Counted from the first letter of the stretch, positions 3,018 to 24,766 are shown. The stretch: DNA of 24,766 nucleotides from Candidatus Limnocylindrales bacterium (GCA_035559535.1 DATMBG010000051.1:496001-520766), one strand, 5' to 3'. A program made the numbers and translations. Notes: generated by a model from the sequence alone, not told the origin.

Positions 3018-3042
3018 TTTAGCACAAGAAGGAGGTAAGAAT

Positions 3043-3855: not shown

Positions 3856-3857
3856 CC

Positions 3858-4868: not shown

Positions 4869-5002
4869 AAAAAATTTTCTAAAAAAATTTGTCAATTCTT
4901 TCTTAAAGGTATTAATTATTATCTAGTTACCATCCGGTAATGGGTTTTAATCTAAGGCTGGGATTAACACCAGGAAGTTTTCCGGTATTTAGCCCGGCAG
5001 TC

Positions 5003-5024
5003 AATATGCTTTATAAAACATATT
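5003..5024. promoter_or_regulatory. ModE-type palindromic operator 2 (AATATG-N10-CATATT)
   Basis: Perfect 6-bp inverted repeat, 10-nt spacer, 27 nt before the molbindin ATG; shares TATG-N10-CATA with 4847-4868. Confidence 0.62.
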
Positions 5025-5051
5025 AAATTTTCCCTATAGGAGTCCCCAACG

Positions 5052-5261
5052 ATGCAAATCAGTGCCCGGAATGTCTTAAAAGGCAAAGTAAAAAGTATCA
5101 CCCACGGCTTGGTAAATTCAGAGGTTATTGTTGAGTTACCCGGTGGAACCGAAATCGTTTCGGTAATCACCAAAACCTCAGCCGAAAAGTTAGGTTTAAC
5201 CGAAGGCAAAGAAATCTATGTGGTTATTAAAGCAACCCATGTCATGATTGCCACAGACTGA
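5052..5261 (+). CDS. mop: TOBE-domain molybdate-binding protein (molbindin, Mop family)
   Basis: MQISARNVLKGKV...VITKTSAEKLGL..G...VVIKATHV, the classic single Mop domain; SD AGGAG. Confidence 0.93.
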   Translation: MQISARNVLKGKVKSITHGLVNSEVIVELPGGTEIVSVITKTSAEKLGLTEGKEIYVVIKATHVMIATD

Positions 5262-5295
5262 ATAAGATATTGCCTGAAGGGAAGTAACACCGGTT

Positions 5296-6372: not shown

Positions 6373-6397
6373 ACGAAGGATAAAGAAAGGAGCAGAT

Positions 6398-7174: not shown

Positions 7175-7290
7175 ACCCTCGCAGGCAGGCAGATGAGAAG
7201 TAACCATAAAAACAAAATAAAGATTAAGGATCCTTCCCCTACCAGAGGTGAGAAGCCTTTTCAGGTTGTTAGGGTGAATTTTTGTAGACA

Positions 7291-8004
7291 TTGACGGATA
7301 TGAATTTCTCCTTGTTTCCACTCACACCTGAAGAAGTCTCTGCGATTTGGCTTTCTATTAAAGTAGGGTTCTGGTGTGCAGGGATCACTTCCATTCCGGG
7401 CGTGATCTGCGGTTGGCTTTTGGCTAAAAAGAATTTTTTCGGAAAATCCCTGCTGGACGGATTTTTTCATTTATCCTTGGTTCTCCCTCCCGTTGTAGTG
7501 GGATATCTTTTGCTTTTAACCTTCGGCAATCAAGGGTTTTTAGGTAAATGGCTTCGAGAAATGCTGGGTATTTCCATTGCTTTTACCTGGAAGGGAGCCG
7601 TATTAGCTTCCGCGGTTATGGGATTTCCTCTTATGGTTCGCTCGGTCCGCCTCTCTATGGAACTGGTGGAACCAAAGCTAGAAGAAGCTGCCCGTACCCT
7701 CGGAGCCGGACCTTTATGGGTTTTTTTTACCGTCACCCTACCCCTTGCGTTTCCAGGAATCCTGGTCGGTCTGATTCTCTCTTTTGCTCGAAGTTTGGGA
7801 GAATTTGGGGCTACCATTACCTTTGTATCCAACATTGTAGGAGAAACGCAGACGCTACCTTTAGCCATCTATACCTATACCCAAACCCCCCAGGGGGATA
7901 AGCCTGCCCTTCGTCTGGTGATCTTGTCCCTGACTCTGGCCTTCATGGCTTTGATGACCAGTGAAATACTGGCCAAAAGGGTTGAAAAATTACTGGGAAG
8001 GTAG
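7291..8004 (+). CDS. modB: Molybdate ABC transporter permease (start may be ATG 7300)
   Basis: LVLPPVVVGYLLL, EEAARTLGA, FARSLGEFGAT, TQTLPLAIY. Confidence 0.96.
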   Translation: MTDMNFSLFPLTPEEVSAIWLSIKVGFWCAGITSIPGVICGWLLAKKNFFGKSLLDGFFHLSLVLPPVVVGYLLLLTFGNQGFLGKWLREMLGISIAFTWKGAVLASAVMGFPLMVRSVRLSMELVEPKLEEAARTLGAGPLWVFFTVTLPLAFPGILVGLILSFARSLGEFGATITFVSNIVGETQTLPLAIYTYTQTPQGDKPALRLVILSLTLAFMALMTSEILAKRVEKLLGR

Positions 8005-8017
8005 AAGACAGGATAAC

Positions 8018-9112
8018 TTGTTAGATTTAGACATCCAATTAAGCCGCGGTAGTTTCAGTTTGGAGGCAAGCTTGAGACTCCATGAACCCATCACGGGCGT
8101 TTTTGGACCCTCGGGTTCCGGCAAGAGTACGCTCCTCCATGTCATTGCAGGTCTTATCACTCCTCAAGCGGGTAAAATCAAACTGGGAGAGATCCTGCTC
8201 TATGATACAGAAAAGAAAATTAACCTGCCGCCCCATAAACGAAGAATCGGATATGTATTTCAGGATGGTCAACTTTTTCCCCATCTTTCTGTAAAAAACA
8301 ATCTCCTCTATGGTTATTGTCTTGTTCCTCGAAACCAAAGACGTTTTAAACTTGATCAAATCGTAAATTTGCTGGAAATTCAATCCCTACTTTCTCGCTA
8401 TCCCCGAAACCTCTCTGGGGGCGAGAAGCAAAGGGTTGCTCTAGGCCGAGCCCTTTTAACGTCTCCCAGGCTCCTGTTATTGGACGAACCTCTGGCTTCT
8501 CTAGATGAAGGCCTTAAGAGGCAGATTCTGCCTTTTTTGAAAAGAATTGCCATTGAAACCCATATCCCCATGATTTATGTGAGCCATGCCATCGGCGAAA
8601 TTCTCCAGTTAACCGATCAAATGGTCGTAATTAAGAATGGACGAATTCTTGGTCAGGGTTCTTTTCTGAAAGTTATGAAAGATGAAAAAATCCTGGAACT
8701 GGCTAAATTATCCGGGCTGGAGAATGTCATACCCGTAGAGGTGGTAGGACACGAGCGGGAGTTGGGACTCACCTTGGCAAAGCTCCACCATCAAACCTTG
8801 AATCTACCCTTCTCCTCTATTCCAGAGGGAGAAAGAACCTTTGTATCGGTTCGACCAGAAGATATTGCCCTGGCTATTCAGCCTGTGACAGGCACTTCCA
8901 TTCAAAATCAGCTTGAAGGAGAGATTCTCGGAATGACGGATGTGGGCAACCGGATATTGGTGGAGGTAGATATCGGCGTCGTGGTACTGGCAGAATTAAC
9001 CATTAAAGCCTTCCATGATCTTAATCTAAAAGAAGGTATGCCCGTTTACTGCTTAATTAAAACCCATGCCTTTACTTACCTGGGAAAACCCTTGAATAGA
9101 GAGGTTTCTTAA
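8018..9112 (+). CDS. modC: Molybdate ABC transporter ATP-binding protein with C-terminal TOBE domain
   Basis: GPSGSGKST, LSGGEKQRVALGRALL, LLLDEP, C-terminal SIQNQLEG...L.LKEG..VY.LIK; TTG 8018 after AGGA preferred over 7961, which overlaps modB. Confidence 0.95.
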   Translation: MLDLDIQLSRGSFSLEASLRLHEPITGVFGPSGSGKSTLLHVIAGLITPQAGKIKLGEILLYDTEKKINLPPHKRRIGYVFQDGQLFPHLSVKNNLLYGYCLVPRNQRRFKLDQIVNLLEIQSLLSRYPRNLSGGEKQRVALGRALLTSPRLLLLDEPLASLDEGLKRQILPFLKRIAIETHIPMIYVSHAIGEILQLTDQMVVIKNGRILGQGSFLKVMKDEKILELAKLSGLENVIPVEVVGHERELGLTLAKLHHQTLNLPFSSIPEGERTFVSVRPEDIALAIQPVTGTSIQNQLEGEILGMTDVGNRILVEVDIGVVVLAELTIKAFHDLNLKEGMPVYCLIKTHAFTYLGKPLNREVS

Positions 9113-9753
9113 TTCTGTAATCCCAGCTTCTCCAGGATAGTTAACTTTTTCTCCTGAACAGATTTCAGTTCCCCTTTTTTGAGAAGATCTAAAATATCCC
9201 AATCTAAAATTTGATGAACAAGCGTTCTTCTCAGAAAGGGGTCTTTAACCTGCCGGTGTATGTTTTCCCTTAATTCTCCCAGGATTTTCAGAAAGGGTTC
9301 GTACTCCTCCCCAAATTCCCTTTCCAGTTTTTCTCGAATTTTTTTAGCCAACGCCGGACTCTTGCCACTGGTAGAAATACTCAACAACAGATCACCTCGC
9401 TTAACCAAAGCCGGAACAATAAAGTTACAATATCTGGGACAATCCACTACATTAACCAGGATGTTTCTTCTCGAAGCATCCCGATAAACCCGGGCATTAA
9501 CCTCAGGTCGGTTTGTAGCGGCTATGACGAGGAACGCCTGGTCCAGATCTTTCTCGTCATATTTTTTGGGTAGATACGTGACCTTTTTCTGATCAATTAA
9601 ATCTTTCAATCCTGCGGTCACTTCGGGACTGATGACCATTACCGAGGCTTCACAGGCTAACAAAGAATTGACTTTCTGCTCGGCTATCTCTCCTCCGCCT
9701 ATAACCAGGCATTTTCGGCCTTTTAATTCGAGGCAAATGGGATAATAAGACAC
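9109..9753 (-). CDS. sirC: Precorrin-2 dehydrogenase / sirohydrochlorin ferrochelatase (SirC/Met8p, CysG N-terminal-like)
   Basis: YYPICLEL.G..CLVIGGGEIA Rossmann motif, VNVVD.P..CNF, ISTSGKSPALAK; likely GTG start at 9753 (ORF track extends to 9810); no methyltransferase domain. Confidence 0.9.
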   Translation of the reverse strand: MSYYPICLELKGRKCLVIGGGEIAEQKVNSLLACEASVMVISPEVTAGLKDLIDQKKVTYLPKKYDEKDLDQAFLVIAATNRPEVNARVYRDASRRNILVNVVDCPRYCNFIVPALVKRGDLLLSISTSGKSPALAKKIREKLEREFGEEYEPFLKILGELRENIHRQVKDPFLRRTLVHQILDWDILDLLKKGELKSVQEKKLTILEKLGLQN

Positions 9754-9781
9754 CGCAATCCATAAGGAGTAGGCCCTAGAC

Positions 9782-9811
9782 CATGGGAAGTAAAACCGGC
9801 TACCTCCCATG
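9782..9811. other. Intercistronic inverted repeat (hairpin)
   Basis: CATGGGAAGTA-AAACCGGC-TACCTCCCATG, 11-bp stem, one position of which pairs only as G-U on the minus-strand transcript. Confidence 0.6.
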
Positions 9812-9836
9812 TACGGTCATAGTCTACGGCCCATCC

Positions 9837-10286
9837 TTAAATACCTACCTCAATATTTTCTATCCTGGCCCCATCTGCATCGATACCCAAGATGATATGA
9901 CAAAGGTGGGTATCGATGGTCAGGCGATAGGCTCCTGGATTTTTAAGGGAGAAAGAAATATTTCGGATTAATTGATCCTTTAGGGTGGTCAGCGACCGAT
10001 TGGTTTCTTTGATCAAACTCAGGATCCTGGAGCCTCTTAAAGTTTTGTGATAAATTCGTAGAAAAACTTGCTCATCTTCACGATCGTAAACCTTCCCGAT
10101 TCTACCTGTTTCAAAACCTATTTCCAGGAGTCTTTCCACATAGCCCATGAGTTCTTCCGGAACTTCTCCCTTTTCAAGGGATTCCAGGAGTGAAATATAT
10201 TTATTACGGGTTTCTCCCTGAAGCTGCCCAGTAAGGGCTTTTATTTCCCGTATAAGGAGTTCTTTTTCTTGAAGATCTATTTCCAT
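9837..10286 (-). CDS. Hypothetical protein in the sulfate-assimilation operon
   Basis: 149-aa ORF, co-oriented between cysH and sirC, protein-like composition; no motif recognised. Confidence 0.8.
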   Translation of the reverse strand: MEIDLQEKELLIREIKALTGQLQGETRNKYISLLESLEKGEVPEELMGYVERLLEIGFETGRIGKVYDREDEQVFLRIYHKTLRGSRILSLIKETNRSLTTLKDQLIRNISFSLKNPGAYRLTIDTHLCHIILGIDADGARIENIEVGI

Positions 10287-10371
10287 TTAAAAAGTTTTCA
10301 GGTATCCATCCTTAAAGGGCTTAAAGTGAGCTAGAGTTGGAGAAAACTCTAGCCATTCTAAGCCCTTTCCT

Positions 10372-11178
10372 TCATCCTTCCTCTTCTTTCAATAAAGCTT
10401 CCAGTTCGTGCTCAAATCCGCCTGTGAGAAGGCTGCAATGCATACCACACTCCTTAGGTGCATTAATTTCCCACCACCAGCGGCCTGCCCGGGGATTCTC
10501 GCCGGGTTTAACAGGACGCGTGCAGGGATAGCAACCGATACTGGTATAACCTTTATCGTAAAGTCTGTTGTAGGGAACCCGATGAGTTCTGATATAATCC
10601 CAAACCTCTTCCTCCGTCCAATCGGCCAGAGGATTAACCTTCACCACACCCCCGTGATCGTGATCCAGCTCGATTTTCCGAATATTGGTTCGGGAGGCCC
10701 ATTGATCTCTTCTCAATCCGGTTATCCAGGCGTCCAACCCAGTTAAAGCCCGAAGTAAGGGGCGCACCTTTCGAACTTCGCAGCACATCAATCGGAGTTT
10801 AACACTTCGGTAAAAGAGGTTGACTCCATGTTTTTTGACCAACTTCTCCACCTCGTGGGTATTGGGATAGTAGACCTCTATGTTGATTCCATATTGCCCC
10901 CTTACTTCCTCCATGAGTTCGTAAGTCTCCTCTGGAAGTCGACCGGTATCCAGGGTGATGACCCGTACCTCGGGATTGATTCGCCAGGCCATATCCAGAA
11001 GAACCATCCCATCTATTTGAAAACTGGTAATCAACGCCAATCTCGGATGAAACTCTTGGAAAGCCCATCGGATGACTTCTGTTGGTTCCTGGTCGTCGAA
11101 CTGAACGGCCAGTTCTCCGACTTCTAAGTCGTCTAACTTTCGTCGAGGTTCTGATTGTAATAAGTTGGTCGTTTCCAA
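10372..11178 (-). CDS. cysH: Adenosine 5'-phosphosulfate (APS) reductase, [4Fe-4S] type, CysH family
   Basis: LDTGRLPEETY, CC pair (MCCEVRKV), WITGLRRDQ, CxxC (SIGCYPCT), RAGRWWWE, C-terminal ECGMH; TTG start directly after the sir stop, SD GGAGG. Confidence 0.95.
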   Translation of the reverse strand: METTNLLQSEPRRKLDDLEVGELAVQFDDQEPTEVIRWAFQEFHPRLALITSFQIDGMVLLDMAWRINPEVRVITLDTGRLPEETYELMEEVRGQYGINIEVYYPNTHEVEKLVKKHGVNLFYRSVKLRLMCCEVRKVRPLLRALTGLDAWITGLRRDQWASRTNIRKIELDHDHGGVVKVNPLADWTEEEVWDYIRTHRVPYNRLYDKGYTSIGCYPCTRPVKPGENPRAGRWWWEINAPKECGMHCSLLTGGFEHELEALLKEEEG

Positions 11179-11179
11179 T

Positions 11180-12796
11180 TTATTTTCCCTCCATTAAATT
11201 TTTAAGTTGTTCGTCCTGATGTTTGAGACAAAATTCTTGAAAACTTATAGCCTCCTTTTCTTTCCGGTAAGCCTGATAAGCCCGGATCAACCTCTCCAGG
11301 TAGTATTTAACTTGATCTGCCGGTACTCTTCGTCCTATGGCCTTGCCGATAAGGGGCTTATTTCCCAATCCACCTCCCAGGAAGATATCATAAGCTTCTA
11401 TTTTTTCTCCTTCAGGAGATCGGGCCGTGGTCCCTTGAAGACCGATATCTCCCACCCAGTGGGCCCCACAGGCATGGGGACACCCGTCCAGGTAAATCCG
11501 AAGATCGTCGACTCCTTCCCCCATGGCATTCTCCAGATGGGAAATGATCTCGGCAAGTCTTCCCTTTGTTTCGGTGACGGCAAAGTTACAATGAGGTTGT
11601 CCGGTACAGGCAATTCCGGGTCCCCGGAGCCGACTGACTTTGAGTGTAAAACCTATTGCTTCCATTCTTTCAAGAACCTGGGTTAGTCGGGATTCGGGAA
11701 TATAGGTGATAATAAAATTCTGCTCTCGGGTTAGACGAATATCCTTTCCCTCCTGGGCAACAAGCTCTGCTATCTGAATCATCTGCTCACTGCTAAGGCG
11801 TCCTGTGAACACCGGAAACCCCAGGTAGTAGAATCCCCTTTGTTTCTGTTCACAAATACCCAGGTGGGAAGTTCGACCAACAGATTGCTCCAGCAGAGGT
11901 AGTTCCGGGAAATCTTCCAGCTTCCTTCCTAACTTGTTCTCAATGAGGTTTCGAAAAGCTTCCGGACCGTAATCATCGACCATGAACTTCAGGCGTGCCT
12001 TGATAAAAGATCGGCGATAGGTCAGGTCATCTTTCCAGACATCCAGAATGGCCCGAATCACAGGTAAAGTATCTGCCATGGAAACGAAAACCCCCAACGG
12101 TTTTGCAATCCTTGGTACTGTTGAGAGACCTCCTCCGACCCAAACTGTAAAGCCCAGTTGCTCCTGACCTGCTACCATCCTTTTAACCCCTACAAAGGCC
12201 TGGCAGTGAATCTCTGGGGCATTACATCGATAGGCACAGGCGGAAAGTGTTATTTTATGTTTCCTGGGAAGATCTGAATATTCTGGATTCCCATCCAGGA
12301 ATCGGGCAATTTCCCTTACAAGGGGCGATGCATCGAACAATTCCTGCCTATCCAATCCGGCTACCGGACACCCGGTTATATTTCTTACCACATCCCCACA
12401 GGCTCCCACCGTGGATAAACCTGCTTCCTGAAGGATTTGGAAGATCTCCGGCAAGGTTTCCAGTCGAATCCAGTGAAGTTGAATATCCTGTCGGGTCGTA
12501 ATTTCTCCATAGCCCTTACCAAATTTCCTGGAAATCTCTCCGATGGTTCTTAATTTTTGAGGGGTCAAAATGCCGTTAGGGATCTTAATACGCATCATGA
12601 AAGTACCCATTTTAGGTTTGTCATGATACAACCCGTACCATTGAAGACGAACCATATCTTCCTCGGGAATATCCTCGTAGCCTTTCTGGATCAGTTCAGG
12701 AAGTTCGTGGATAATCTCCAACGGCATTTTCTCCTTCTTCAACCGTTCTCGAGGATTCTTTTTGATGATTTGATCATACGTCCCTATTTCACCCAT
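11180..12796 (-). CDS. sir: Siroheme ferredoxin-dependent sulfite (nitrite/sulfite) reductase
   Basis: LQWYGLY, ITTRQDIQLHW, GACGDVVRN, LPRKHKI, siroheme/Fe-S ligands ACTGQPHCNFA and GCPHACG; SD AAGGAG; context with cysH indicates sulfite. Confidence 0.92.
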   Translation of the reverse strand: MGEIGTYDQIIKKNPRERLKKEKMPLEIIHELPELIQKGYEDIPEEDMVRLQWYGLYHDKPKMGTFMMRIKIPNGILTPQKLRTIGEISRKFGKGYGEITTRQDIQLHWIRLETLPEIFQILQEAGLSTVGACGDVVRNITGCPVAGLDRQELFDASPLVREIARFLDGNPEYSDLPRKHKITLSACAYRCNAPEIHCQAFVGVKRMVAGQEQLGFTVWVGGGLSTVPRIAKPLGVFVSMADTLPVIRAILDVWKDDLTYRRSFIKARLKFMVDDYGPEAFRNLIENKLGRKLEDFPELPLLEQSVGRTSHLGICEQKQRGFYYLGFPVFTGRLSSEQMIQIAELVAQEGKDIRLTREQNFIITYIPESRLTQVLERMEAIGFTLKVSRLRGPGIACTGQPHCNFAVTETKGRLAEIISHLENAMGEGVDDLRIYLDGCPHACGAHWVGDIGLQGTTARSPEGEKIEAYDIFLGGGLGNKPLIGKAIGRRVPADQVKYYLERLIRAYQAYRKEKEAISFQEFCLKHQDEQLKNLMEGK

Positions 12797-14968: not shown

Positions 14969-14984
14969 TGGTACTCCCTTTGCT
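14969..14984 (+). promoter_or_regulatory. Sigma54 (-24/-12) promoter upstream of the Dpp/Opp ATPase genes
   Basis: TGGTACTCCCTTTGCT: GG-N10-GC with TTGCT, matching TGGYAC-N5-TTGCW. Confidence 0.7.
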
Positions 14985-15068
14985 TTTATATTTTCAGAGG
15001 TTTCAAAAGATTTCAACAGGCAAGGTCGGTCAAACGTCCTCGTTTGACGGTGGGTCATCGGTAAGATT

Positions 15069-16127
15069 ATGTACGGTACCCAACTTCTTACAAACAGAAA
15101 GCAAACAGATGAAATGTTGTTCCAGATTAAAGACCTGAGTCTTACTCTGTACGGTCAGGGAAAACCAGCTCGCATTTTGAATAACATTGATCTTTATATT
15201 AGAGAATCGGAAGTTGTGGGATTGATAGGAGAAACTGGTAGTGGAAAGTCATTAACAGCACTCACAGCGCTTCGTTTACTTCCACCTTCGATATCGGCTT
15301 CTGTAGAAGGAGAAGTGTTTTTCGAGGGAAGAGATTTACTTCAAGAGGATGAGGATTATCTTCGAACCATTCGGGGGAGCAGGATTTGTATTATTTTCCA
15401 GGATCCGATGAGTTATTTAAATCCTGTTTTGACGGTGGGAAGACAACTGGTGGATGTTATTCTGGCTCATAACCTTCTGGGAGAAAGTTCTCGGCGATTT
15501 CCTTTATACAAAGGGGATCTACGAAAAAAAGCTACCGCTCATGCCCTTCAAATCCTCAAGGATGTTGGGATTCCCAGACAGGAAGTAATTTTGAGGAGCT
15601 ATCCCCATGAGCTAAGTGGTGGGATGGGACAAAGGGTTTTGATCGCGATGGCGCTTCTATGTAATCCCCGATTGATTATCGCCGATGAACCTACGGCCTC
15701 CCTGGATGTGACCCTACAAGTCCAAATTCTCAAACTTTTGAAACAGAGGGTTCAGGAACGTAAGACGGCCCTGCTCCTCATATCCCATGATCTGGGTATT
15801 ATCCGTTCTCTATGCCATCGGGTTTATGTCATGTATGCGGGTGAAATCGTAGAGTCAGGGGATGTCGAGACGGTGATCCATAAGCCTGCACATCCCTATA
15901 CCCAAAAACTTATTAATGCCATTCCGAGTCGTGAGTTGGATAAGAGATTAACCGGTATAGAAGGGACGGTTTGTGATTTTACAGAACCTCCTCCAGGATG
16001 TCGATTTGAACCGCGATGTTCAAGTAGAATGCTTGTCTGTAAGTTGGAAAAACCTATTCTCATCGAGTTTGAACCCAACCATCAAGTAAGTTGTTTTCTC
16101 TATGAAAACCGAAACCATCTTGAATAA
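15069..16127 (+). CDS. Peptide/nickel-family ABC transporter ATP-binding protein (DppD/OppD-like; start may be ATG 15114)
   Basis: GETGSGKS, IFQDPM..LNP, YPHELSGGMGQR, ADEPT, C-terminal HPYT...GCRFEPRC...C...HQVSC. Confidence 0.94.
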   Translation: MYGTQLLTNRKQTDEMLFQIKDLSLTLYGQGKPARILNNIDLYIRESEVVGLIGETGSGKSLTALTALRLLPPSISASVEGEVFFEGRDLLQEDEDYLRTIRGSRICIIFQDPMSYLNPVLTVGRQLVDVILAHNLLGESSRRFPLYKGDLRKKATAHALQILKDVGIPRQEVILRSYPHELSGGMGQRVLIAMALLCNPRLIIADEPTASLDVTLQVQILKLLKQRVQERKTALLLISHDLGIIRSLCHRVYVMYAGEIVESGDVETVIHKPAHPYTQKLINAIPSRELDKRLTGIEGTVCDFTEPPPGCRFEPRCSSRMLVCKLEKPILIEFEPNHQVSCFLYENRNHLE

Positions 16128-17115
16128 GAACCCAGAAAAATCAGGAGTTCTCGAGGCTCCTTTACTGAGAGTAATAAATTTAAAAACCTATTTTCCACTG
16201 AAACCAAGATTCTTTCGCCCAAAGGCTTATATAAAAGCTGTAGATGGGGTCAGCTTTCAACTCCTTCGTGGAGAAACGCTGGGTGTTGTGGGGGAATCCG
16301 GCTCAGGTAAAACAACGCTGGTTAAAACGATTGTCAGGCTATTGGACCCCACAGAAGGGCAGATTTTGCTCAATGGCGAGGATATTGCCAAATTATCCTA
16401 TGAAGAAATGAGACTCCGTAGACGACACATTCAGATGGTCTTTCAGGATCCTTATTCATCTTTGAATCCTCGTTTTAGCGTTCGGCAGATTATCGAAGAA
16501 CCTCTCCAGATCCATGATAATCTTTCGGAGGAAAAACGGATCGATGAGGTGGTTAGGCTTTTGGATCTGGTCGGGTTAAACGCAAGTTATATGGAGCGAT
16601 TCCCTTATGAATTAAGTGGTGGGCAACGTCAACGCGTAGGCTTAGCACGGGCCTTAGCCTTAAAACCCAAATTACTTCTTTTGGACGAGGTTACTTCCGC
16701 CCTGGATGTATCTACCCAGGCAAATATTTTAAACCTCCTTAAAGATCTTCAACAAAGGCTTTCACTGGCTTATTTGATGGTTTCCCATGACCTGGGGGTC
16801 ATCGGATACTGCTGTAACTGGGTCGCCGTCATGTATCGAGGACGAATGGTAGAATTAGCCAGGACCCAAGATATTTTTGCTTCCCCCAAACACCCGTATA
16901 CAAGACTTCTTCTCTCCAGTATCCCCGGTTCGGATACTTTTCTATTAGAAGGGGAGATAAACCATAAAACCACCGGGTTCCCGGGCGATTCGCATACCTG
17001 GACAGGTTGCGCGTTTTATTCCCGTTGCAGGGAGCACAAGGAAATATGTAGAGAAGTACAACCTGAGGAGCGTTACCTTTCCAAGGAGCATAGGGTGGCC
17101 TGTCACCTCTGGTAA
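16102..17115 (+). CDS. Peptide/nickel-family ABC transporter ATP-binding protein (DppF/OppF-like)
   Basis: KAVDGVSF, GESGSGKTT, VFQDPYSSLNPR, LSGGQRQR, HPYT...GCAFYSRC...HRVACH. Confidence 0.94.
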   Translation: MKTETILNKNPEKSGVLEAPLLRVINLKTYFPLKPRFFRPKAYIKAVDGVSFQLLRGETLGVVGESGSGKTTLVKTIVRLLDPTEGQILLNGEDIAKLSYEEMRLRRRHIQMVFQDPYSSLNPRFSVRQIIEEPLQIHDNLSEEKRIDEVVRLLDLVGLNASYMERFPYELSGGQRQRVGLARALALKPKLLLLDEVTSALDVSTQANILNLLKDLQQRLSLAYLMVSHDLGVIGYCCNWVAVMYRGRMVELARTQDIFASPKHPYTRLLLSSIPGSDTFLLEGEINHKTTGFPGDSHTWTGCAFYSRCREHKEICREVQPEERYLSKEHRVACHLW

Positions 17116-17182
17116 GACTTCATCCGGCCAGAGTCGGGTCCCTCTGCTATCTGGAAAGCCTGGGGAGCATTCCATTTAATCT

Positions 17183-18193
17183 ATGTTTCTAACTTTTTTA
17201 ATTAAAAGGTTTTTAGGGATGCTCACGACCCTGATCGGGGCCCTGACCCTGACGTTTTTTCTGACTCAGGTCATCCCGGGAGATGCCGCCATTATGAAGG
17301 TGGGTCAATTTGCAGACCCCACGGCCATAGCCAACATGCGAAAATTGATGGGACTGGATGAACCTCTTCACCGACAATATTTAATTTATTTAAAAAATAT
17401 TCTGCAAGGAGAATTGGGTCATTCCTGGAAGACAGGAAACGAGGTGGTAGAAGACCTTAAAGTTCGTCTCCCGGCCACACTGGAACTGGCCTTCTGGGCC
17501 ATGTTTTCTTCCTTTTTCTTAGGATTAGTTTGGGGAGTTGTCAGTGCCTTTCGTAAAGGAGGATTGGCAGATATTGCCACGCAGGTATTTGGAATCTTGG
17601 GAGGAGCCATTCCTATTTTTTGGCTGGCCTTGATGGGAGTTTATGTTTTCTACTTTCTTCTTCATCTCGCCCCGGCACCCACTGGCCGTCTGGGTATCTT
17701 AGATGAACCCCCCTCTCCGATTACCGGGTTTTACGTCCTGGATAGCCTTCTGGAAGGAGATCTTGACCTGTTCTTTAAGAGTCTTCACTACTTGATTTTG
17801 CCGGTCCTCTGTCTGGACATACTGCTCATCCCTCCGATTTCCCGTATGGTTTATACCTCCATTTTAAATGTTTTATCCTCAAACTATATCCGAACGGCTA
17901 AAGCCTACGGACTCCCAGAACGCCTTATCCGCTATCGATACGCCCTAAGAAATGCTCTGATTCCGGTCATAACCCTTTGCGGTCAATTATTTACCCACCT
18001 CATTGGAGGAATCGTACTGGTCGAAGTCGTATTTGCCTGGAATGGTATCGGGCGTTATGCCGTAAACAGCCTGCAGGTTGCCGATCTGGCCCCGGTTCGT
18101 GCGTTTATTCTCGTGGTTATCGTCTGTTCCCTCCTCGTAAATTTTATCATAGATCTTATCTACTTTTATCTAGACCCCCGAATAAAGGGATAA
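17183..18193 (+). CDS. Peptide/nickel-family ABC transporter permease (DppB/OppB-like)
   Basis: PGD, GLDEPL..QY, RLPATLEL, YIRTAKAYGL, ALRNALIP, DLIY..LDPRI. Confidence 0.94.
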   Translation: MFLTFLIKRFLGMLTTLIGALTLTFFLTQVIPGDAAIMKVGQFADPTAIANMRKLMGLDEPLHRQYLIYLKNILQGELGHSWKTGNEVVEDLKVRLPATLELAFWAMFSSFFLGLVWGVVSAFRKGGLADIATQVFGILGGAIPIFWLALMGVYVFYFLLHLAPAPTGRLGILDEPPSPITGFYVLDSLLEGDLDLFFKSLHYLILPVLCLDILLIPPISRMVYTSILNVLSSNYIRTAKAYGLPERLIRYRYALRNALIPVITLCGQLFTHLIGGIVLVEVVFAWNGIGRYAVNSLQVADLAPVRAFILVVIVCSLLVNFIIDLIYFYLDPRIKG

Positions 18194-18411
18194 GGAATAT
18201 GACCCCTACCTCCAGTTTTATAGTCCCCTTTGTTTTGAAATTTCCCCCTACCTTCCCAAAGAAAGACTCCAGAAACGCCCACAAAATAAGCGAATAATCC
18301 CAGAACTGTATAGAAAATTAGCACCCTTGATCGACCTGTCTTTCTGCCCTTTATCTCCTAATCTCTTATTTTGTAAAGAGTTAGTTAAATTTTCAATATT
18401 TAGACCTGGGG

Positions 18412-18427
18412 TGGTATAGGCCTTGCT
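18412..18427 (+). promoter_or_regulatory. Second sigma54 (-24/-12) promoter, internal, upstream of the solute-binding protein gene
   Basis: TGGTATAGGCCTTGCT: GG-N10-GC with TTGCT; within the 447-nt gap between the permease and SBP genes. Confidence 0.7.
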
Positions 18428-18640
18428 CTTTCAGATAGCCGGTATATTCAGTAATCCAGAGAAGTGGATGGTTCTTGCCACACAGGTATAGGGAAGTGTC
18501 ATATTGACTTCACATGGAAGCTGGCCACGGGCTATACCCCATTCATCTTTTTTCAGGCTTAGAACAAATGGGATAGGACCTATATCTATGGGAATTTGGT
18601 ATAAGTAAGTCCCATCCCCCTTATAAAAAGGAGTCAGAAG

Positions 18641-20314
18641 ATGAGGAAAGGCAGAGTTCAAAATCATCATACAGAAGCGGATATGGTCAACCTTACCCTT
18701 GACCGGCGCTCCTTTCTAAAGCTTGTGGGAGCTACAGGAAGTTTGATGGCCGCAGGGGATTTACTAACCGGATGGGAGAAGGTCGGGGAAGCTGCCGGTA
18801 AAAAAGTAACCCTGACGGTGGCTTTTCCTGCGGATATCGCTTCTTTGCTCCCGGATGTTTGGGCGGGAATGACCGAACATGTCATCAAACGCACCATCTA
18901 CGACTGCCTGCTCCATTACCAGACTCAAGAGGTCAATGGGAAACTCTATTATGACAATGATCGTTATGATATGCTCATTGCCAGTGACCTTAAGGTTTCT
19001 GATGACCGTAAGACCCTTACATGGACCATTCGGGATGGATGGACCTTCTCCAACGGGAAGAAGATTGATGCTTATGCCTGTGAGAAGTGCTTCCGATGGT
19101 ACTTTAAGCGGGATAGTATTGGGGCTGCCCAGATGAAGGTCGATGGAATTACCCGGCTAGAGGATGTGTATGCTGTGGATGCAAGGACCCTGGTCCACCA
19201 GCTTACCTATCCAGCTCCTTGGGGGGCCATTGCCAATTATATTCAACTGCTCAGCATCGTGGATGTAGATGAAATTATGAAACATGCCACCGAGAGCGAT
19301 CCCTATGGGGTAAAGTGGTTGGAGCGGGAAACGGTATGTTCAGGTCCTTACAAGATAGAGAAGTGGATAACAGGAGATCAATTCGTGGTGACCGCACGGG
19401 AAGATTACTATAAGGGTAAACCGAAAATAGACCGGATTATTTTTAAAATTATCCCGGACCCTTCAACCCGTTACATGATGGCCCAAAGGGGCGAACTGGA
19501 TATGCCGGCTAATCTGGATATGAAGGATCTGGAAATTTTGAAAAAAGATCCCAACTTCCTGGTCGAAGGATACGAAACCCTGGATTGGTGGTACCTGGGT
19601 ATGAATTGGAAAACGCCTCCCTTTGAGGATTTAAATGTTCGCAAAGCCATTGCCCACGCCATTCCCTACGATGAAATCATTAATACGGTCTGGTACAATT
19701 TTGCTACCCGCCTCAAGAGTTGCTATCCCATTCCGGTACCCGGGTATGATCCAACTCTATGGCCTTACGAATATGATCTGGATAAAGCAAAAGGATATCT
19801 CAATCAGTCGAGTCGTCCCAAAGGATTTGAGGTGGAGATGGCAGTGGATAACGATAATATCAATGAAGAACGAACGGCTATCCTGATCCAGGATGCCCTC
19901 AAAAAAATTGGAATCAATGTAAGTATCCAGAAAATGACGGCCGCTAAAAAATGGGAATCCTTGATTGCCAGGAAAATTGACTCTGCCGTGGCTGCTTTTA
20001 TGCCCTGGATTGCCGATGGAGGATATCATACCCACTGGAATCTCCTGGAAGATAGTTTTGCCAATTTTTTTAATTATAAAAATCCCGAGGCTGATAAAAT
20101 CGCTAAAGAATTTATCTATATGGATCCTAAAGATCCCCGACGCATTGAACTCATGAAGAAACATCAAACCCTGTTAATTAATGACGTTCATGCCGTTTAT
20201 CTCTTTGCCCCTCAGTGGATTTATCCCCACCGAAAGAACCTGAAGGGATTTGTTTACTTTCCAGATTCTATGCCTCGATTCAGCCTCATGGAGAAAACCA
20301 ACGATTTAGGCTAA
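18641..20314 (+). CDS. Family-5 (DppA/OppA-like) solute-binding protein with Tat signal peptide
   Basis: Twin-arginine motif DRRSFLK; IYDCLL, SGPYKI..W, PPFEDLNVRKAIAHAI; SD AAAGGAG before ATG 18641. Confidence 0.93.
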   Translation: MRKGRVQNHHTEADMVNLTLDRRSFLKLVGATGSLMAAGDLLTGWEKVGEAAGKKVTLTVAFPADIASLLPDVWAGMTEHVIKRTIYDCLLHYQTQEVNGKLYYDNDRYDMLIASDLKVSDDRKTLTWTIRDGWTFSNGKKIDAYACEKCFRWYFKRDSIGAAQMKVDGITRLEDVYAVDARTLVHQLTYPAPWGAIANYIQLLSIVDVDEIMKHATESDPYGVKWLERETVCSGPYKIEKWITGDQFVVTAREDYYKGKPKIDRIIFKIIPDPSTRYMMAQRGELDMPANLDMKDLEILKKDPNFLVEGYETLDWWYLGMNWKTPPFEDLNVRKAIAHAIPYDEIINTVWYNFATRLKSCYPIPVPGYDPTLWPYEYDLDKAKGYLNQSSRPKGFEVEMAVDNDNINEERTAILIQDALKKIGINVSIQKMTAAKKWESLIARKIDSAVAAFMPWIADGGYHTHWNLLEDSFANFFNYKNPEADKIAKEFIYMDPKDPRRIELMKKHQTLLINDVHAVYLFAPQWIYPHRKNLKGFVYFPDSMPRFSLMEKTNDLG

Positions 20315-20384
20315 AAGCAGCAGCTAGGGGGCAGGAAGAAGTGGAGTAAAAAACTGCCCATGGTCTCTGTTTTCTGAACTTTTA

Positions 20385-21284
20385 ATGGCTGTTGAAAGGG
20401 AAAGTCTTTTTCAGGCTGAAGAAATCTTCCGGCAAAGGATGCAAAGTCCCCTTCGAAGGCTGGGGGTATTTCTGGGACTGACCTGCAATCGACGGATCCA
20501 AATCGGTCTAATTTTAATTACGTTCTGGGTTCTGGTGGCCCTCCTGGCTCCTTTCATAGCGCCCTATGGTCCAGAAGAGGTTTTTCAAGGCGATAAACGA
20601 CTTAAACCCCTGGATAAATACTGGCTTGGAACAGATCAATTTGGACGTGACCTTCTCAGCCGAATATTATACGGAGCGAAATATGAGTTACTCATCGGCA
20701 TTATTTCAACAACTGGAGCGGTATTCATGGGAATCGGTCTGGGGGCTATAGCCGGATTTTATGGAGGGGGGGTAGATCAGGTGATCATGCGGATCATGGA
20801 TCTTCTCTTTGCCTTCCCCAGCTTTATCTTAGCCCTGATATTTGCTGGAATCCTAGGCTCTGGGGTGGTAAACCTCATCCTATCCTTAATTCTGGTCTCC
20901 ATTCCCATTTATGCCAGACTTATTCGAGGGGAAATCTTGCAACAGAAAAGACGACAATACGCCGATGCGGCCGTCGTTACAGGATGTTCTAAAAATCGGA
21001 TGTTGGTTCATCATCTCTTGTTCAATAGTTTGAATCCTGTGATCACCCAGTTTCCTATGACCATTTCCTGGGTAATCCTTACAGCCGCCGGAATTAGCTA
21101 TCTAGGTTTTGGCATTCAACCTCCGGCCCCGGAATGGGGGCTTATGATCAATGAAGGGAGTAATTATATTGTTTCCGGAGATTGGTGGATTTCCTTCTTC
21201 CCGGGAATAGCCCTGTTTACCCTCCTTTTAGGTTTTTCTCTATTGGGAGATGGACTTAATGAGAGCTTATACGCCCGAGGCTAA
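20385..21284 (+). CDS. Peptide/nickel-family ABC transporter permease (DppC/OppC-like)
   Basis: LGTDQFGRDLLSRILYG, MRIMD...AFP, SYLGFGIQPPAPEWGLMI, LLGDGL. Confidence 0.94.
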   Translation: MAVERESLFQAEEIFRQRMQSPLRRLGVFLGLTCNRRIQIGLILITFWVLVALLAPFIAPYGPEEVFQGDKRLKPLDKYWLGTDQFGRDLLSRILYGAKYELLIGIISTTGAVFMGIGLGAIAGFYGGGVDQVIMRIMDLLFAFPSFILALIFAGILGSGVVNLILSLILVSIPIYARLIRGEILQQKRRQYADAAVVTGCSKNRMLVHHLLFNSLNPVITQFPMTISWVILTAAGISYLGFGIQPPAPEWGLMINEGSNYIVSGDWWISFFPGIALFTLLLGFSLLGDGLNESLYARG

Positions 21285-21309
21285 AACCACTACACTAAAA
21301 AGAGTGTAC

Positions 21310-21355
21310 CAAGGACTATGAACTCTAAACAGGGGTTTAGGGTTCATGGCCCTTG
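21310..21355. other. Long intercistronic hairpin (21-bp stem)
   Basis: CAAGGACTATGAACTCTAAAC-aggg-GTTTAGGGTTCATGGCCCTTG with two G-U pairs and one mismatch; no U tract. Confidence 0.7.
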
Positions 21356-21367
21356 AGTCCGTAGATC

Positions 21368-22144
21368 ATGATACCTCAAAAAGGAAAACCTCTACTTTGG
21401 GAAGAACTTTCTTGGACAGAGGTTCAAGAACTTACTAAAACCATGAAAATGGCCATTTTACCGTGTGGAGCAATTGAACAGCATGGTCCACATCTCCCAT
21501 TGTGTGTGGATACTCTGGATGTCTATGAGGTAGCCAAACGAATTTCAGCGGCAACCGGGGTACCCGTCCTACAACCCTTTTGGTATGGGGTTTCCCAACG
21601 CCATGGAGACTTCCCAGGAACCATTGCCTTCAGACCGGAAACCTTTATGATGGCCGTTTTAGACATTGCTCACTGGCTTTATAAGGCTGGAATCCGTAAA
21701 CTGCTACTGCTGAACGGACATATGTGGAATATCGGTTCTTTACAGGCTGTTCGGGATAAAATTCTGGACGAATTCCCCCGGGATATGCGGGTCCGTTTTA
21801 TGAATTGGTGGGAAGTCTCCGAACGGGTTCGTAATAAAGCTGCCGAAGATAACCCAGAAGATCCCACATGGATTCATGCCAATATTGCCGAGACTTCCTG
21901 TGTACTGGCCATACGTCCAGACCTGGTAGATATGAGTAAAGCCTCTAATTACGACGATATTAAAGTGTTCTGGGATTATCGAATGGATCAATATACTCCG
22001 ACAGGTATCGTCGGTAGAAAAACAACGGAATCTACCGCCGAGTGGGGAGAAGCACTCTTTCAAATGGTTATTGAAGATCTGGTTCCTCAAATTAAAGAAG
22101 CTCTGGAAGAACAACCTCGGGTGAAAGGAGATCTGTTCAAATAA
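21368..22144 (+). CDS. Creatininase / creatinine amidohydrolase family metallo-hydrolase (substrate unknown)
   Basis: LPCGAIEQHGPHLPL..D, YGVS..H..FPGT, LNGH..N, HA...ETS; metal-ligand motifs intact. Confidence 0.92.
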   Translation: MIPQKGKPLLWEELSWTEVQELTKTMKMAILPCGAIEQHGPHLPLCVDTLDVYEVAKRISAATGVPVLQPFWYGVSQRHGDFPGTIAFRPETFMMAVLDIAHWLYKAGIRKLLLLNGHMWNIGSLQAVRDKILDEFPRDMRVRFMNWWEVSERVRNKAAEDNPEDPTWIHANIAETSCVLAIRPDLVDMSKASNYDDIKVFWDYRMDQYTPTGIVGRKTTESTAEWGEALFQMVIEDLVPQIKEALEEQPRVKGDLFK

Positions 22145-22301
22145 TCAACTTCCTATCACCTTTATTTTGAAATTTTTATCTGTCTCAGGTTATAAAAATC
22201 CAGCATAGAAGATTCAAGATAGAAGGACTTTACCCCATGGACTGTGAACAAAAATCCTCCTTCCCTGGTTCATGGGGTAAGTAGATTCCCTGGAGAAATT
22301 T

Positions 22302-23006
22302 ATGGTAAAATCCCCGGTTATTGTCCAGGCAGACCCCTACGATTGGCCCTATGACGGAAATTTGGTCCCCGAACGAACGGCTCTTCTGGTAATTGATATG
22401 CAGATCGACTTCTGTGGGAAAGGGGGTTATATAGATCAGATGGGATATGATATTTCTTTGACCCGAGCCGCTATTAAGCCTATCCAAACGGTTTTAACTG
22501 CTATACGAAAAATCCCAGGTTTTACTATTATCCATACCCGCGAGGGTCATAAGCCTGATCTATCCGATCTTCCAGCAAATAAATTATGGCGAAGTAAAAG
22601 AATCGGTGCCGGAATCGGAGATCTGGGACCCCGGGGTCGTATCCTTATACGAGGTGAACCGGGATGGAATATCATTGAAGAGCTTAAACCACTTCCCGGA
22701 GAACTTATTTTGGATAAACCGGGGAAAGGAAGTTTTTATGCTACGGACCTGGAGTTGATCCTTAGAAATCGGGGGATTACCCATCTGATCCTTACAGGTA
22801 TTACAACCGATGTATGTGTCCACACAACTCTGCGAGATGCTAATGACCGGGGATATGAGTGCCTTCTTCTGGAAGATTGTACAGGGGCTACTGATTATGG
22901 AAATTACCTGGCAGCTATTAAAATGATTAAAATGCAGGGAGGCGTCTTCGGAAGCGTTTCAACCTCCAAGCGTTTGCTGGAAGCCTTAGAAAAACTAAAA
23001 ACCTAA
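22302..23006 (+). CDS. biuH: Biuret hydrolase (isochorismatase-like cysteine hydrolase)
   Basis: Closely matches BiuH as I recall it: [73 protein letters not shown]; Asp/Lys/Cys catalytic triad present. Confidence 0.88.
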
Positions 23007-23302
23007 TCCCACTCCTATCCCAGGAAAAGAAGTCCTTTGATAAGGAACGGGTAAACGTTAACAAGGCTATGGGTTGTTTAAGATAGATGAAATTTATAAT
23101 GGATCTTTTACACCTTTTATCACCTGGAATAACCTATCAACAAAAATCTTCTATAAAGAAACCGATTATAAAATTTTATTGAATATTTAACAATTTTGAT
23201 CTATTTTCTCTAATACCATGGATATAAAGTCTTATTGAAGAGAATTTTGGGTCATCCTGAGGATGAAAGTTTAGATTTTTATTTTTTGTAAAAGGAGGTT
23301 TT

Positions 23303-23611
23303 ATGGCCGTTAAAAAGACGGGTGCAAGAGGTGAGAAAAAAGAACAACCCACCAAGAAAAAAGTCGTATTCCAGCTTTTAGCTCCTGAAGCTCAAAGCGT
23401 CAGAGTAGCTGGAAGCTTTAACAACTGGGATACCCAATCCTATGAATTAAAAAAAAATAAGAAAGGACTCTGGAAGACAACTATTTCTCTGGAACCCGGA
23501 ACCTATGAATATCTTTTTTTAGTAGATGGAAAATGGGAGAAAGATCCGGCCTGTACGGAGTTTGTCTCCAATCCCTTTGGGGGTCAGAACTGTACCATTA
23601 CCGTAACCTAG
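23303..23611 (+). CDS. Stand-alone glycogen-binding CBM48 (isoamylase early-set / AMPK1_CBM) protein with Lys-rich N-terminus
   Basis: APEAQSVRVAGSFNNW...GLW...L.PGTYEY.F.VDGKW..DP...NPFGG.N; SD AAGGAGG. Confidence 0.9.
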   Translation: MAVKKTGARGEKKEQPTKKKVVFQLLAPEAQSVRVAGSFNNWDTQSYELKKNKKGLWKTTISLEPGTYEYLFLVDGKWEKDPACTEFVSNPFGGQNCTITVT

Positions 23612-23750
23612 TGTTTAAAATAGAGATCCCTTTGTAAAAAGAGTTGAAAGGTAAGAAGAATTCTGGAGAGTCCCAGCTTTCAAAAATTAATCTAAAAAGA
23701 TTGATTTAAACAGTAACTATGCTATTAATGAAAAGAACTGAAGGGCGAAA

Positions 23751-24131
23751 ATGAAAATTTTTTTCAATGGAACGGTCCTGCAGGGTCAACCGGACCATGC
23801 TAATCTAGAAGGTTGTCTTTTCCTTAAAGCCACTTATACCGCTCCTGCCTACGCCTTATATTCTATCCAGGATAAACATCCGGGGATGTTTTGGGTTGGA
23901 AAAGAAAAAGGGGTTAAAGTATTCGGAGAACTCTACGAAGTACCTGAAAAGATATGGGAAGAACGTATCAGTAAGACAGAACCCCCAGGTCTATACCTGG
24001 GGCCCGTTCTACTGGAAGATGGGACCCAGGTCTATGGAATGCTTTATCCTGAAGAAGAAGCCCGTAAACATCTAGATATTTCCTCATTCGGAAGCTGGAT
24101 CAACTATCTCAAGAGTAAAAAATCCCCTTAA
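23751..24131 (+). CDS. Stand-alone allophanate-hydrolase C-terminal-like domain (gamma-glutamylcyclotransferase-like fold)
   Basis: F.NGT...G...H, TAP.Y.LY, HPG, GELYEVP, PPGL.LG.V.LEDG..V.G, C-terminal DISSFGSWINYL resembling the AtzF C-domain DIS.FGGWR.Y. Confidence 0.8.
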   Translation: MKIFFNGTVLQGQPDHANLEGCLFLKATYTAPAYALYSIQDKHPGMFWVGKEKGVKVFGELYEVPEKIWEERISKTEPPGLYLGPVLLEDGTQVYGMLYPEEEARKHLDISSFGSWINYLKSKKSP

Positions 24132-24147
24132 ACAACATTTACAAGTT

Positions 24148-24766
24148 CTACTTTAACCAGGGCCATTTAGCAGACTCGGGAGGGAAATAGGTCGTTTTCC
24201 TTTCTTGTTTACGAGCTTGTGGGGCTCTTTTTTTTCTATCCTTTGTATAAAAAGGCGGGGTGAAATCCTTTTGAGCCTGTTTATTCAAAATGGGATAAGG
24301 AGAGAAAGGAGCATTTTCCTTAATTGAAGTTAAGTTTTTGTTTTCAATGCTATATTCTTTGTACTCTAAAGCTTCAGTAATTTCTCTTCTGGATGGAGCA
24401 GAATCATTAGCTCCAGGGTCGATAGAACCATTCTTTGAATTACAATCCGAGGGGTATTCCTCCGGAACTATACAATCCACGCCCCTACTTACAACGTCTG
24501 CAACAAGAGTCAGATCTTTGGAAGGTTCTGGAGAAGTTTCAGGCTTCCAGATTCCATAGATTTTATCCATGAACGCTACCCAGATGGGTAGTGCTGTATG
24601 AGTTCCATCCCACTGAATCGGATCCCCCTGATCATATCCTACCCATACCAGGGTCAAATACTCGGGAGTGTACCCCATAAACCACCCATCCTTGAAATCA
24701 CTGGTCGTCCCCGTCTTCCCAGCTACCAACCCCTTATAACCCAGCTTCCTGGCCTCATAGCCTGTC
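24148..24766 (-). CDS. Class A penicillin-binding protein (PBP1A family), C-terminal part; 5'-truncated by the window
   Basis: Frame open to the window end (TGYEARKLGYKGLVAGKTGTTSDFKDGWFMGYTP...VWVGYD...ALPIW..FM); KTG transpeptidase motif. Confidence 0.9.
   Translation of the reverse strand, partial: TGYEARKLGYKGLVAGKTGTTSDFKDGWFMGYTPEYLTLVWVGYDQGDPIQWDGTHTALPIWVAFMDKIYGIWKPETSPEPSKDLTLVADVVSRGVDCIVPEEYPSDCNSKNGSIDPGANDSAPSRREITEALEYKEYSIENKNLTSIKENAPFSPYPILNKQAQKDFTPPFYTKDRKKRAPQARKQERKTTYFPPESAKWPWLK

Follow-up and report, generated by a model that had tools for sequence, protein, structure and literature searches.

A creatininase-family gene beside biuret hydrolase in a Candidatus Limnocylindrales bacterium and in archaea, and its possible role in supplying biuret

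The importer-crn-biuH row and its two hydrolases

This study concerns a row of nine plus-strand genes at 15069-24131 in a 24,766-nucleotide stretch of DNA from Candidatus Limnocylindrales bacterium (GCA_035559535.1 DATMBG010000051.1:496001-520766), referred to below as the window. The row encodes a Dpp/Opp-type ATP-binding cassette (ABC) importer, the putative creatininase-family metallo-amidohydrolase Crn (21368-22144; PF02633, 223 bits) and the predicted biuret amidohydrolase BiuH (22302-23006; NF050097, 409 bits against a cut-off of 370), and our main finding is that crn and biuH recur together in archaea. The importer comprises ATPases of the DppD/OppD type (15069-16127) and the DppF/OppF type (16102-17115), each with PF00005 and PF08352, permeases of the DppB type (17183-18193; PF00528, PF19300) and the DppC type (20385-21284; PF00528, PF12911) and, between the two permease genes, a family-5 solute-binding protein with a twin-arginine-like signal (18641-20314; PF00496). 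A small CBM48/AMPK-type carbohydrate-binding protein (23303-23611; PF16561, PF02922) and a stand-alone allophanate-hydrolase C-domain (AH_C)/GGCT-like protein (23751-24131; PF21986, 94 bits) close the row. All parts named in the original prediction, namely two sigma54 sites, the Dpp/Opp importer, the creatininase homologue, BiuH and the AH_C-like gene, were found on the plus strand where it had placed them.

The genes of the row are real and intact. Their order is conserved in the only other genome of the genus (G001), and an 8.9-kb contig from a separate study covers 15568-24590 at about 91% identity in the same order, so that the arrangement is not an assembly artefact. Ratios of non-synonymous to synonymous substitution rates (dN/dS) between the window genome and G001 are 0.02-0.14 for all nine genes, indicating purifying selection; they are 0.14 for dppD, 0.13 for dppF, 0.085 for dppB, 0.10 for dppC and 0.04 for both the binding protein and AH_C genes, and crn has the lowest value of the row (0.021). 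The GC content of the row agrees with that of the genome, and an Rfam scan of the window gave no match. The right end of the window is the end of contig C51, and the host genome (5.6 Mb) is 96% complete, for which reason genes missing from it are reported below as not found. The lineage is small, the closest genomes compared being G001 and seven more of the order, and neither a close Crn nor a close BiuH was found in those seven.

Crn is modelled with the creatininase fold (predicted local distance difference test score 83; template-modelling score 0.72-0.75 to creatininase structures), and its metal ligands E37, H39, D48, H118 and E175 and catalytic H170 are invariant among 28 aligned relatives. 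The reference site of creatininase we take to consist of the ligands E34, H36, D45, H120 and E183 with catalytic H178. Crn shares the fold, the five ligands and the catalytic histidine with Pseudomonas putida CrnA (PDB 1J2T, 3A6D-L), but it is 26-27% identical to the solved creatininase, reads NGHMWN for NGHYEN, has no creatinase context and has replaced creatinine-binding residues. Those residues in creatininase are presumably Ser78, Tyr121, Glu122, Trp154, Trp174 and Asp175; in Crn, His79, Met119 and Trp120 stand for the first three, Asp175 is unaligned, Trp154 is kept, and Trp174 is Trp in the window protein and mostly Tyr in its archaeal relatives. It could still be argued that Crn is an ordinary creatininase whose importer brings creatinine, as homologues are named 'creatinine amidohydrolase' in databases and the fold and metal ligands are alike. 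This is very improbable given the low identity, the loss of Ser78, Tyr121, Glu122 and Asp175, a score of 124 bits on TIGR04448 (creatininase CrnA, EC 3.5.2.10) against a cut-off of 235, and the lack of any creatinase or sarcosine gene among the recurring neighbours. The premise that the homologue is no plain creatininase is supported by the same residues and score. Crn also falls below the cut-offs for MftE (86 against 172 bits) and IolN (90 against 245 bits), and no such context lies in the window. With a signature of NGHMWN, HAN and an aromatic-D/E-YRMDQY flap, which is absent from paralogues at 29-33% identity, Crn is best described as a predicted metallo-amidohydrolase of an uncharacterised creatininase subfamily.

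The relatives of Crn begin with one protein at 78% identity, followed by proteins at 52-61% that are largely archaeal, those with taxon names being mostly from Nitrososphaeraceae. A careful tree recovers an archaeal Crn clade (99/98), whose members are the nearest rows to the window Crn after P0002. Archaea with Crn can hold separate creatininase-family paralogues at 31-34% identity. Matches in the ESM Atlas were to generic creatininase clusters only, and no close Crn was found on plasmids, where the best match was about 35%. A Crn-BiuH fusion was not seen among the 120 of 154 proteins listed, all bearing the creatininase Pfam label alone, which is weak evidence. Elsewhere in the family, a large group (P0292-P0409) of 760-800 residues has one creatininase domain and a long region without a precomputed Pfam label, and some of its source names include a 7-cyano-7-deazaguanine term. 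The sister-group creatininase of Streptomyces (L011:2132-16322; 43% identity) has a Dpp importer, an Amidohydro_2 protein, an aldehyde dehydrogenase and a cyclase alongside; its amidohydrolase-creatininase pair is repeated at L092 and looks like a separate uncharacterised catabolic unit.

The window BiuH matches the Rhizobium structure PDB 6AZO (E 3e-111) and keeps the catalytic triad D32/K139/C172 and the pocket residues F37, K142, T168 and Q212, corresponding to reference Phe41, Lys145, Thr171 and Gln215 (residue list, with the triad, from PMC5806882). It is of the BiuH type at all six positions that discriminate BiuH from TrtA (Y43, Y49, S144, D170, T197 and V215, which in TrtA are F35, N41, A134, E160, Y187 and I205; PMC7948467); BiuH-like proteins of ammonia-oxidising archaea have Ala or Gly at the discriminating Ser position. 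Its identity is 74% to Rhizobium BiuH versus 45-46% to TrtA-like proteins, and in the tree it joins Rhizobium and Enterobacter BiuH (support 89), with archaeal BiuH in a separate clade (98). The archaeal partners score lower on NF050097, at 338 and 270 bits for the G063 and L091 proteins and at most 286 bits in the genome search. Family membership predicts that the window BiuH is a true biuret hydrolase. The biuret-binding glutamine is kept in every linked BiuH aligned, on which ground guanylurea was ruled out as the product; GuuH presumably carries glutamate at this position. We also observed another row in G001 (L176:609-7558) and the window genome (G000 C29:5650-9726), with an ABC importer, an amidohydrolase, a second binding protein, a cysteine hydrolase and an arginase-family gene. 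The L176 cysteine hydrolase, which we take to be GuuH-like in having Glu at the position of BiuH Gln215, makes this possibly a guanylurea/guanidine-type operon; the middle of the row is deleted in the window genome, leaving an 82-residue hydrolase remnant.

Linkage of crn and biuH in other genomes

A search of 238 genomes of the family centred on G923, which we infer to be Nitrososphaeraceae, found 19 with a close Crn, 52 with a BiuH-like gene and 12 with both. The BiuH-like gene is thus present in 12 of the 19 Crn genomes compared with 40 of the 219 others (Fisher p = 6e-5, a value that is overstated as kindred genomes are not independent). These counts take in G1149 and G1150, which are flagged as unpublished; without them the numbers are 17 with Crn and 11 with both of 236, with the same result, and both are excluded from the locus counts that follow. 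The close-Crn loci number 21, all archaeal and 49-58% identical: 19 are from 17 genomes of the family, one is the metagenome contig L091 and one is from the bathyarchaeal genome G063. At 12 of them biuH lies on the same strand, 1.6-4.8 kb downstream of crn, with an NCS1 permease between the two in every case (12/12). At paralogue loci (29-33% identity) biuH was found in none of 11, so that the co-occurrence for which the original prediction called was borne out. Among 160 further creatininase-family loci listed (median 12 kb), biuH appears only at L091 (58%), already counted among the 12. The contexts leave out the bacterial Crn relatives P0002, P0118-P0120 and P0141-P0163, which is the main gap in this survey.

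The nine remaining loci include two whose contigs end less than 400 bases from crn, which are uninformative, and seven unlinked copies, four broken and three intact; broken crn genes are found at 4/7 unlinked versus 2/12 linked loci, a difference that is not significant (p 0.13). At three other loci (L212, L233 and L240) we observed 5' crn remnants encoding the first 64-75 residues, which end close before biuH and appear to be left over from deletions in which the remainder of the gene was lost together with the permease. Outside the family, close Crn was found in 0/401 genomes of the family centred on G102 (small-genome ammonia oxidisers), a search with no positive control, and in 1/401 of a Thermoproteota sample. 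In the set of G063 relatives only G063 itself was positive (1/56), and the bathyarchaeal case is therefore a single genome.

The smallest modules are crn-NCS1-biuH in the bathyarchaeon and Dpp-crn-biuH (importer, Crn and BiuH only) in the window. As the Rhizobium-type BiuH of the window falls outside the separate clade of archaeal proteins, the pairing spans two BiuH lineages, and it also spans two importer types. The link between crn and biuH is not local chance, and some functional tie between the two proteins is probable. One could instead imagine a loose nitrogen-scavenging cluster under common control, with Crn and the Dpp importer metabolically unconnected to BiuH. Genes for scavenging gather in clusters and move as groups, the type of importer changes from lineage to lineage, and dppC, crn and biuH are set apart by gaps of 83 bp and 157 bp that contain strong hairpins. 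Against such a cluster, which we consider improbable, stand the recurrence of the crn-(permease)-biuH order across different BiuH lineages, from a bacterial genus to a bathyarchaeon and numerous ammonia oxidisers, the remnants that abut biuH in three more loci and, as a non-significant tendency, the more frequent breakage of copies without biuH.

Importers, accessory genes and transcription signals

The binding protein scores above the cut-off of no NCBIfam family among those listed. Outside the genus it has nine homologues at 42-52% identity, several from Chloroflexota and with gene contexts beyond the present survey, followed by proteins at 34% or less. The suggestion that the Dpp importer feeds the pair stands in so far as its genes lie beside crn-biuH in the genus; outside the genus no such tie was seen, and the archaea use NCS1.

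To place the archaeal neighbours we read, as further biuH loci, 40 of the 54 archaeal BiuH-like places, none of the 40 with a full crn and four of them from genomes with crn on another contig; short contigs make the following counts lower bounds. Bmp-ABC importers were present at 19, a GatA-like amidase at 28, PurE at 25, FAH at 25 and a 5' crn remnant at 3. Bmp-ABC was found at 0/12 crn-linked archaeal loci, and the GatA-like amidase is at 8/12. As PurE, FAH and the amidase accompany biuH regardless of crn, they belong to biuH, and crn travels with NCS1 in place of Bmp, in keeping with another imported compound as the target of Crn. PurE and FAH were accordingly set aside as clues to the Crn substrate. 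As speculation, archaeal PurE might be a carbamate decarboxylase and FAH might act on an oxalyl-ureide (L091, L179-L248).

The AH_C-like protein of the window matches PDB 5C5Z (E 2e-13) and is stand-alone, not fused to an amidase as in AtzF. It is possibly a carbamate-handling accessory. The original prediction was right that such a domain lies near BiuH; the CBM48 gene, which is separated from biuH by 296 bp and is probably unrelated to the pathway, intervenes, and membership of the AH_C protein in the pathway is uncertain. Among its homologues, one has an AtzD-like gene as neighbour (L257), one is part of a cysteine-hydrolase/AllFGH cassette (L258) and one is in an unrelated context (L256). 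In the first of these, a Pseudanabaena plasmid (L257:7398-12201), a stand-alone AH_C/GGCT-like gene sits between uraH and the AtzD-like gene within a urate catabolic cluster, an arrangement whose predicted functions link cyanurate hydrolysis to urate breakdown. The bathyarchaeal locus (L174:1557-9468) has, directly upstream of crn-NCS1-biuH, genes for BioY, BirA, two urea-carboxylase-like carboxyltransferase halves, OadG, OadB and a biotin carrier; no biotin carboxylase was seen in the locus and no urease was found in the genome. In this single genome the set might act as a sodium-pumping decarboxylase of allophanate and conserve energy when biuret is broken down, an idea possibly more surprising than our main finding.

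Predicted sigma54-type -24/-12 sites lie before dppD (14969-14984; one mismatch to consensus) and before the binding protein gene (18412-18427; two mismatches), both on the plus strand. Their boxes are conserved in G001, where the 18412 site is identical, and this site would drive transcription of the binding protein gene, dppC, crn and biuH. By the criterion GG-N10-GC in non-coding DNA the motif is enriched there (64/95 sites within 13% of the genome), and an RpoN gene is present. The motif also stands before many unrelated gene kinds as well as before urease, and a sigma54 site alone is thus not proof of nitrogen control, which is plausible for this row. Sigma70 and terminator scans gave matches at chance level only. 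No RNA data set carrying the row was among the sequencing runs listed, which has no bearing on its expression. The hairpins in the dppC-crn gap (21285-21367), with a stem of about 14 bp, and the crn-biuH gap (22145-22301) have in common the short motif GGAC-TGAAC...GTTCATGG; their sequence is not a genome-wide repeat, and they may stabilise or process the transcript.

The left half of the window is ordinary. At 1947-12796 there are an NMT1/SsuA-type ABC importer, a molybdate importer with a ModE-like regulator, and a row of sulfite/nitrite reductase, adenosine phosphosulfate (APS) reductase and siroheme synthase; a small TOBE-like reading frame near 5053-5262 is shorter than the listed size of open reading frames. 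Elsewhere in the genome (G000 C29:9790-13391), apparent RuBisCO large and small subunit genes with a CbbX-like ATPase were recognised from translations, and the host may therefore be an autotroph.

What Crn may supply to BiuH

In the two canonical biuH operons examined, from Rhizobium and Enterobacter, the gene directly before biuH encodes an AmiF formamidase (L262:5943-6959 and L263:5975-6979; 590 and 552 bits on NF009803 against a cut-off of 406), in the slot where the window has a creatininase-family gene. The Rhizobium operon also contains atzD and a trtA-like gene, the Enterobacter operon atzF and a trtA-like gene, and the amiF-biuH tandem occurs in 123 plasmid records. No AmiF was found at the crn loci examined (the loci, not the whole archaeal genomes), no AmiF orthologue was found in the window genome (best match 28%), and no crn was found at six bacterial ureide loci. 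Loci of Pantoea and Paroceanicella have neither gene, the Paroceanicella hydrolase being TrtA-like, which suggests that a deformylating role would be optional. The archaeal enzyme ArfB is placed in the creatininase family. ArfB and the creatininase-family protein BrbF of Sinorhizobium meliloti, both of riboflavin synthesis, are formamide hydrolases, and their N-formyl removal is the chemistry proposed here for Crn (PMC9478397). The likeness is one of function proposed and not of sequence comparison: their substrate is a biosynthetic formylamino-pyrimidine nucleotide, whereas Crn stands beside an importer and BiuH, no riboflavin genes adjoin crn, and no ArfB model matched Crn in the profile scan. 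As the creatininase family holds proven formamide hydrolases, the simplest joint reading would be that two unrelated folds fill one role, formyl removal, and the formamidase in the slot before biuH lends independent, indirect support to the idea of N-formylbiuret. The accessible parts of the BiuH/TrtA literature searched do not mention a formamidase.

We tentatively favour, as a reading drawn largely from this analogy, that Crn deformylates an N-formyl-ureide taken up by the importer, with N-formylbiuret as the leading candidate, and that BiuH then frees ammonia from biuret. The formyl-ureide would be imported by the Dpp-type system and converted by Crn to biuret and formate; BiuH would, by family membership, convert biuret to allophanate and ammonia; allophanate would decay to urea, perhaps with the aid of the AH_C protein or of a distant amidase; and urease, whose genes lie about 55 kb upstream in the window genome with their own sigma54-type site, would finish the pathway. 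As a variant, BiuH might remove the carbamoyl end first and Crn hydrolyse the leftover formylurea or formamide. In both variants Crn would take the role that AmiF seems to fill in proteobacterial biuH operons. A deformylase would be useful even without biuH, converting formylurea to urea for urease, which would explain the unlinked crn copies. Oxonate is a urate oxidation product; 5-azauracil comes from oxonate, and its ring opening is predicted to give N-formylbiuret. The original prediction that the creatininase homologue makes biuret for BiuH is partly supported, by the linkage elsewhere and by the missing creatinine residues.

Cyanurate or triuret hydrolysis is the main rival to formyl removal. 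Crn would then be a non-homologous stand-in for AtzD or TrtA, opening cyanuric acid or deaminating triuret to 1-carboxybiuret, which decarboxylates to biuret, and these two compounds are the sole proven biuret precursors (PMC7948467). Two AtzD queries (47% identical to each other) matched nothing in the window or genome, the PF09663 profile had no match in the genome in a scan with no positive control, and the best genome match of a TrtA-like query is BiuH itself; the claim that the window lacks AtzD and triuret hydrolase is confirmed, and neither was found in the 96%-complete genome. Creatininases act on cyclic amides, and with a self-decay half-life of about 20 min for carboxybiuret a Crn and BiuH pair would suffice; the PurE-like and AH_C proteins near biuH could also be carbamate decarboxylases. 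We nonetheless regard this as a minority possibility. The cyanurate ring is highly stabilised and calls for a dedicated fold (PMC6557486), triuret/biuret operons usually have Bmp-ABC importers, which are missing from crn loci, the presence of PurE, FAH and the amidase beside biuH does not depend on crn, and opening cyanurate without BiuH would yield no nitrogen, a poor fit to the unlinked intact crn copies. The Rhizobium and Herbaspirillum operons, with AtzD, TrtA, TrtB, BiuH, AtzF and Bmp-ABC (PMC5806882, PMC7948467), resemble the window in combining a feeder enzyme, BiuH and an importer; they differ in that no AtzD, TrtA, AtzH/TrtB-like protein or AtzF was found in the window genome and the importer there is of the Dpp type.

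It is also a minority possibility that Crn belongs to the same nitrogen unit without acting on an upstream formyl compound, and works downstream on allophanate or another carbamate or on a different co-imported ureide or guanidino heterocycle (ammelide, oxalyl-biuret, carbamoyl-hydantoin). There would be little reason for a downstream enzyme to vary with the type of importer, and the glutamine kept in linked BiuHs speaks against guanylurea as product. The downstream step is open: in the window genome no AtzF scored above the cut-offs, the six amidases scored (of seven) staying at or below 261 of 487 and 235 of 511 bits and the seventh being part of a gatCAB row, and G063 and G913 have a single amidase each, which is GatA-like. 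AtzH and a urea carboxylase domain were not found in the window genome, and no AllFG/carbamate kinase or urate-pathway gene matched the queries used. A GatA-like amidase, a published candidate allophanate hydrolase (PMC12625717), is present at the majority of linked loci noted above, and urease was found in G000, G001, G913 and G923, which argues against a downstream role. FAH and AllFGH genes near archaeal biuH hint at oxalyl-ureides, and intact Crn persists without biuH in three genomes.

Several points weigh against biuret supply by Crn and against the formyl substrate in particular. Most linked loci come from one archaeal family, leaving about three independent cases, and the window and archaeal Crn form one clade in just 30% of bootstrap trees. 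Intact archaeal crn genes at L200, L201 and L204, from one sub-clade, have no biuH or NCS1 nearby; two of these genomes show no BiuH and the third only a fragment. The Streptomyces homologue at L011, in a nearby sister group, has no biuH within 10 kb, and the Dpp importer is linked to crn-biuH within one genus only. NCS1 is found at 8/40 of the further biuH loci without full crn, a Pantoea plasmid (L264:3223-6674) has a three-gene amidase-NCS1-biuH unit with a LysR regulator that lacks crn, amiF, atzD and trtA, and linear metformin reportedly has an NCS1 importer (PMC13390362); NCS1 is thus no proof of a new substrate. The formyl substrate itself rests on one positional analogy, the role of AmiF in those operons being itself unexplained, and the 123 amiF-biuH records are, by the rows listed, near-copies from two lineages (Rhizobium and enterobacterial). 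A literature search on 5-azauracil/oxonate chemistry gave nothing biological.

The lower biuret pathway is already known. Clusters of biuH, codB, purE, FAH and 'gatA-like' genes are reported from soil ammonia-oxidising archaea, including one uncultured Nitrososphaeraceae genome with a creatinine-amidohydrolase-like gene near biuH, for which the accessible text proposes no reaction (PMC12625717, 2025). The term 'undescribed' in the original prediction must accordingly be narrowed by that one neighbour pair. Those clusters share the BiuH core with our row, and their Nitrososphaeraceae group holds the closest relatives of the window Crn; unlike the single case there, crn-NCS1-biuH is here a recurring module that extends to a bathyarchaeon, and the window adds a bacterial case in which the importer is of the Dpp type and BiuH of the bacterial type. 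The literature searched gives no function for a creatininase encoded next to biuH; related papers and their supplements may still note a creatininase or formamidase among the neighbours. What is new, in that it was not found in print, is the recurrence of the crn-importer-biuH module, its occurrence in a bacterium and the parallel to AmiF, and the enzyme activity of Crn is probably new.

Most biuret hydrolase genes have no adjacent cyanurate hydrolase gene (PMC7948467), the natural sources of biuret are an open question, and a conserved partner enzyme offers a direct handle on the substrate. It is possible, though we advance it with more reserve than the formyl reading itself, that Crn founds a new N-formylbiuret (5-azauracil) hydrolase subfamily and gives the biuret pathway a third natural point of entry in addition to cyanurate and triuret, that AmiF serves this entry in proteobacteria, and that formyl-ureides from oxidative purine and pyrimidine breakdown are an unrecognised soil nitrogen source and a possible energy substrate for ammonia-oxidising archaea. 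Knowing the Crn substrate would also account for the formamidase found in biuH operons of Rhizobium and would correct the 'creatinine amidohydrolase' label on more than 100 proteins; if the substrate were cyanurate or triuret, Crn would be a second, unrelated fold for that reaction. With crn in 19 of the 238 genomes of a soil ammonia-oxidiser family, the finding bears on the organic nitrogen that fuels nitrification.

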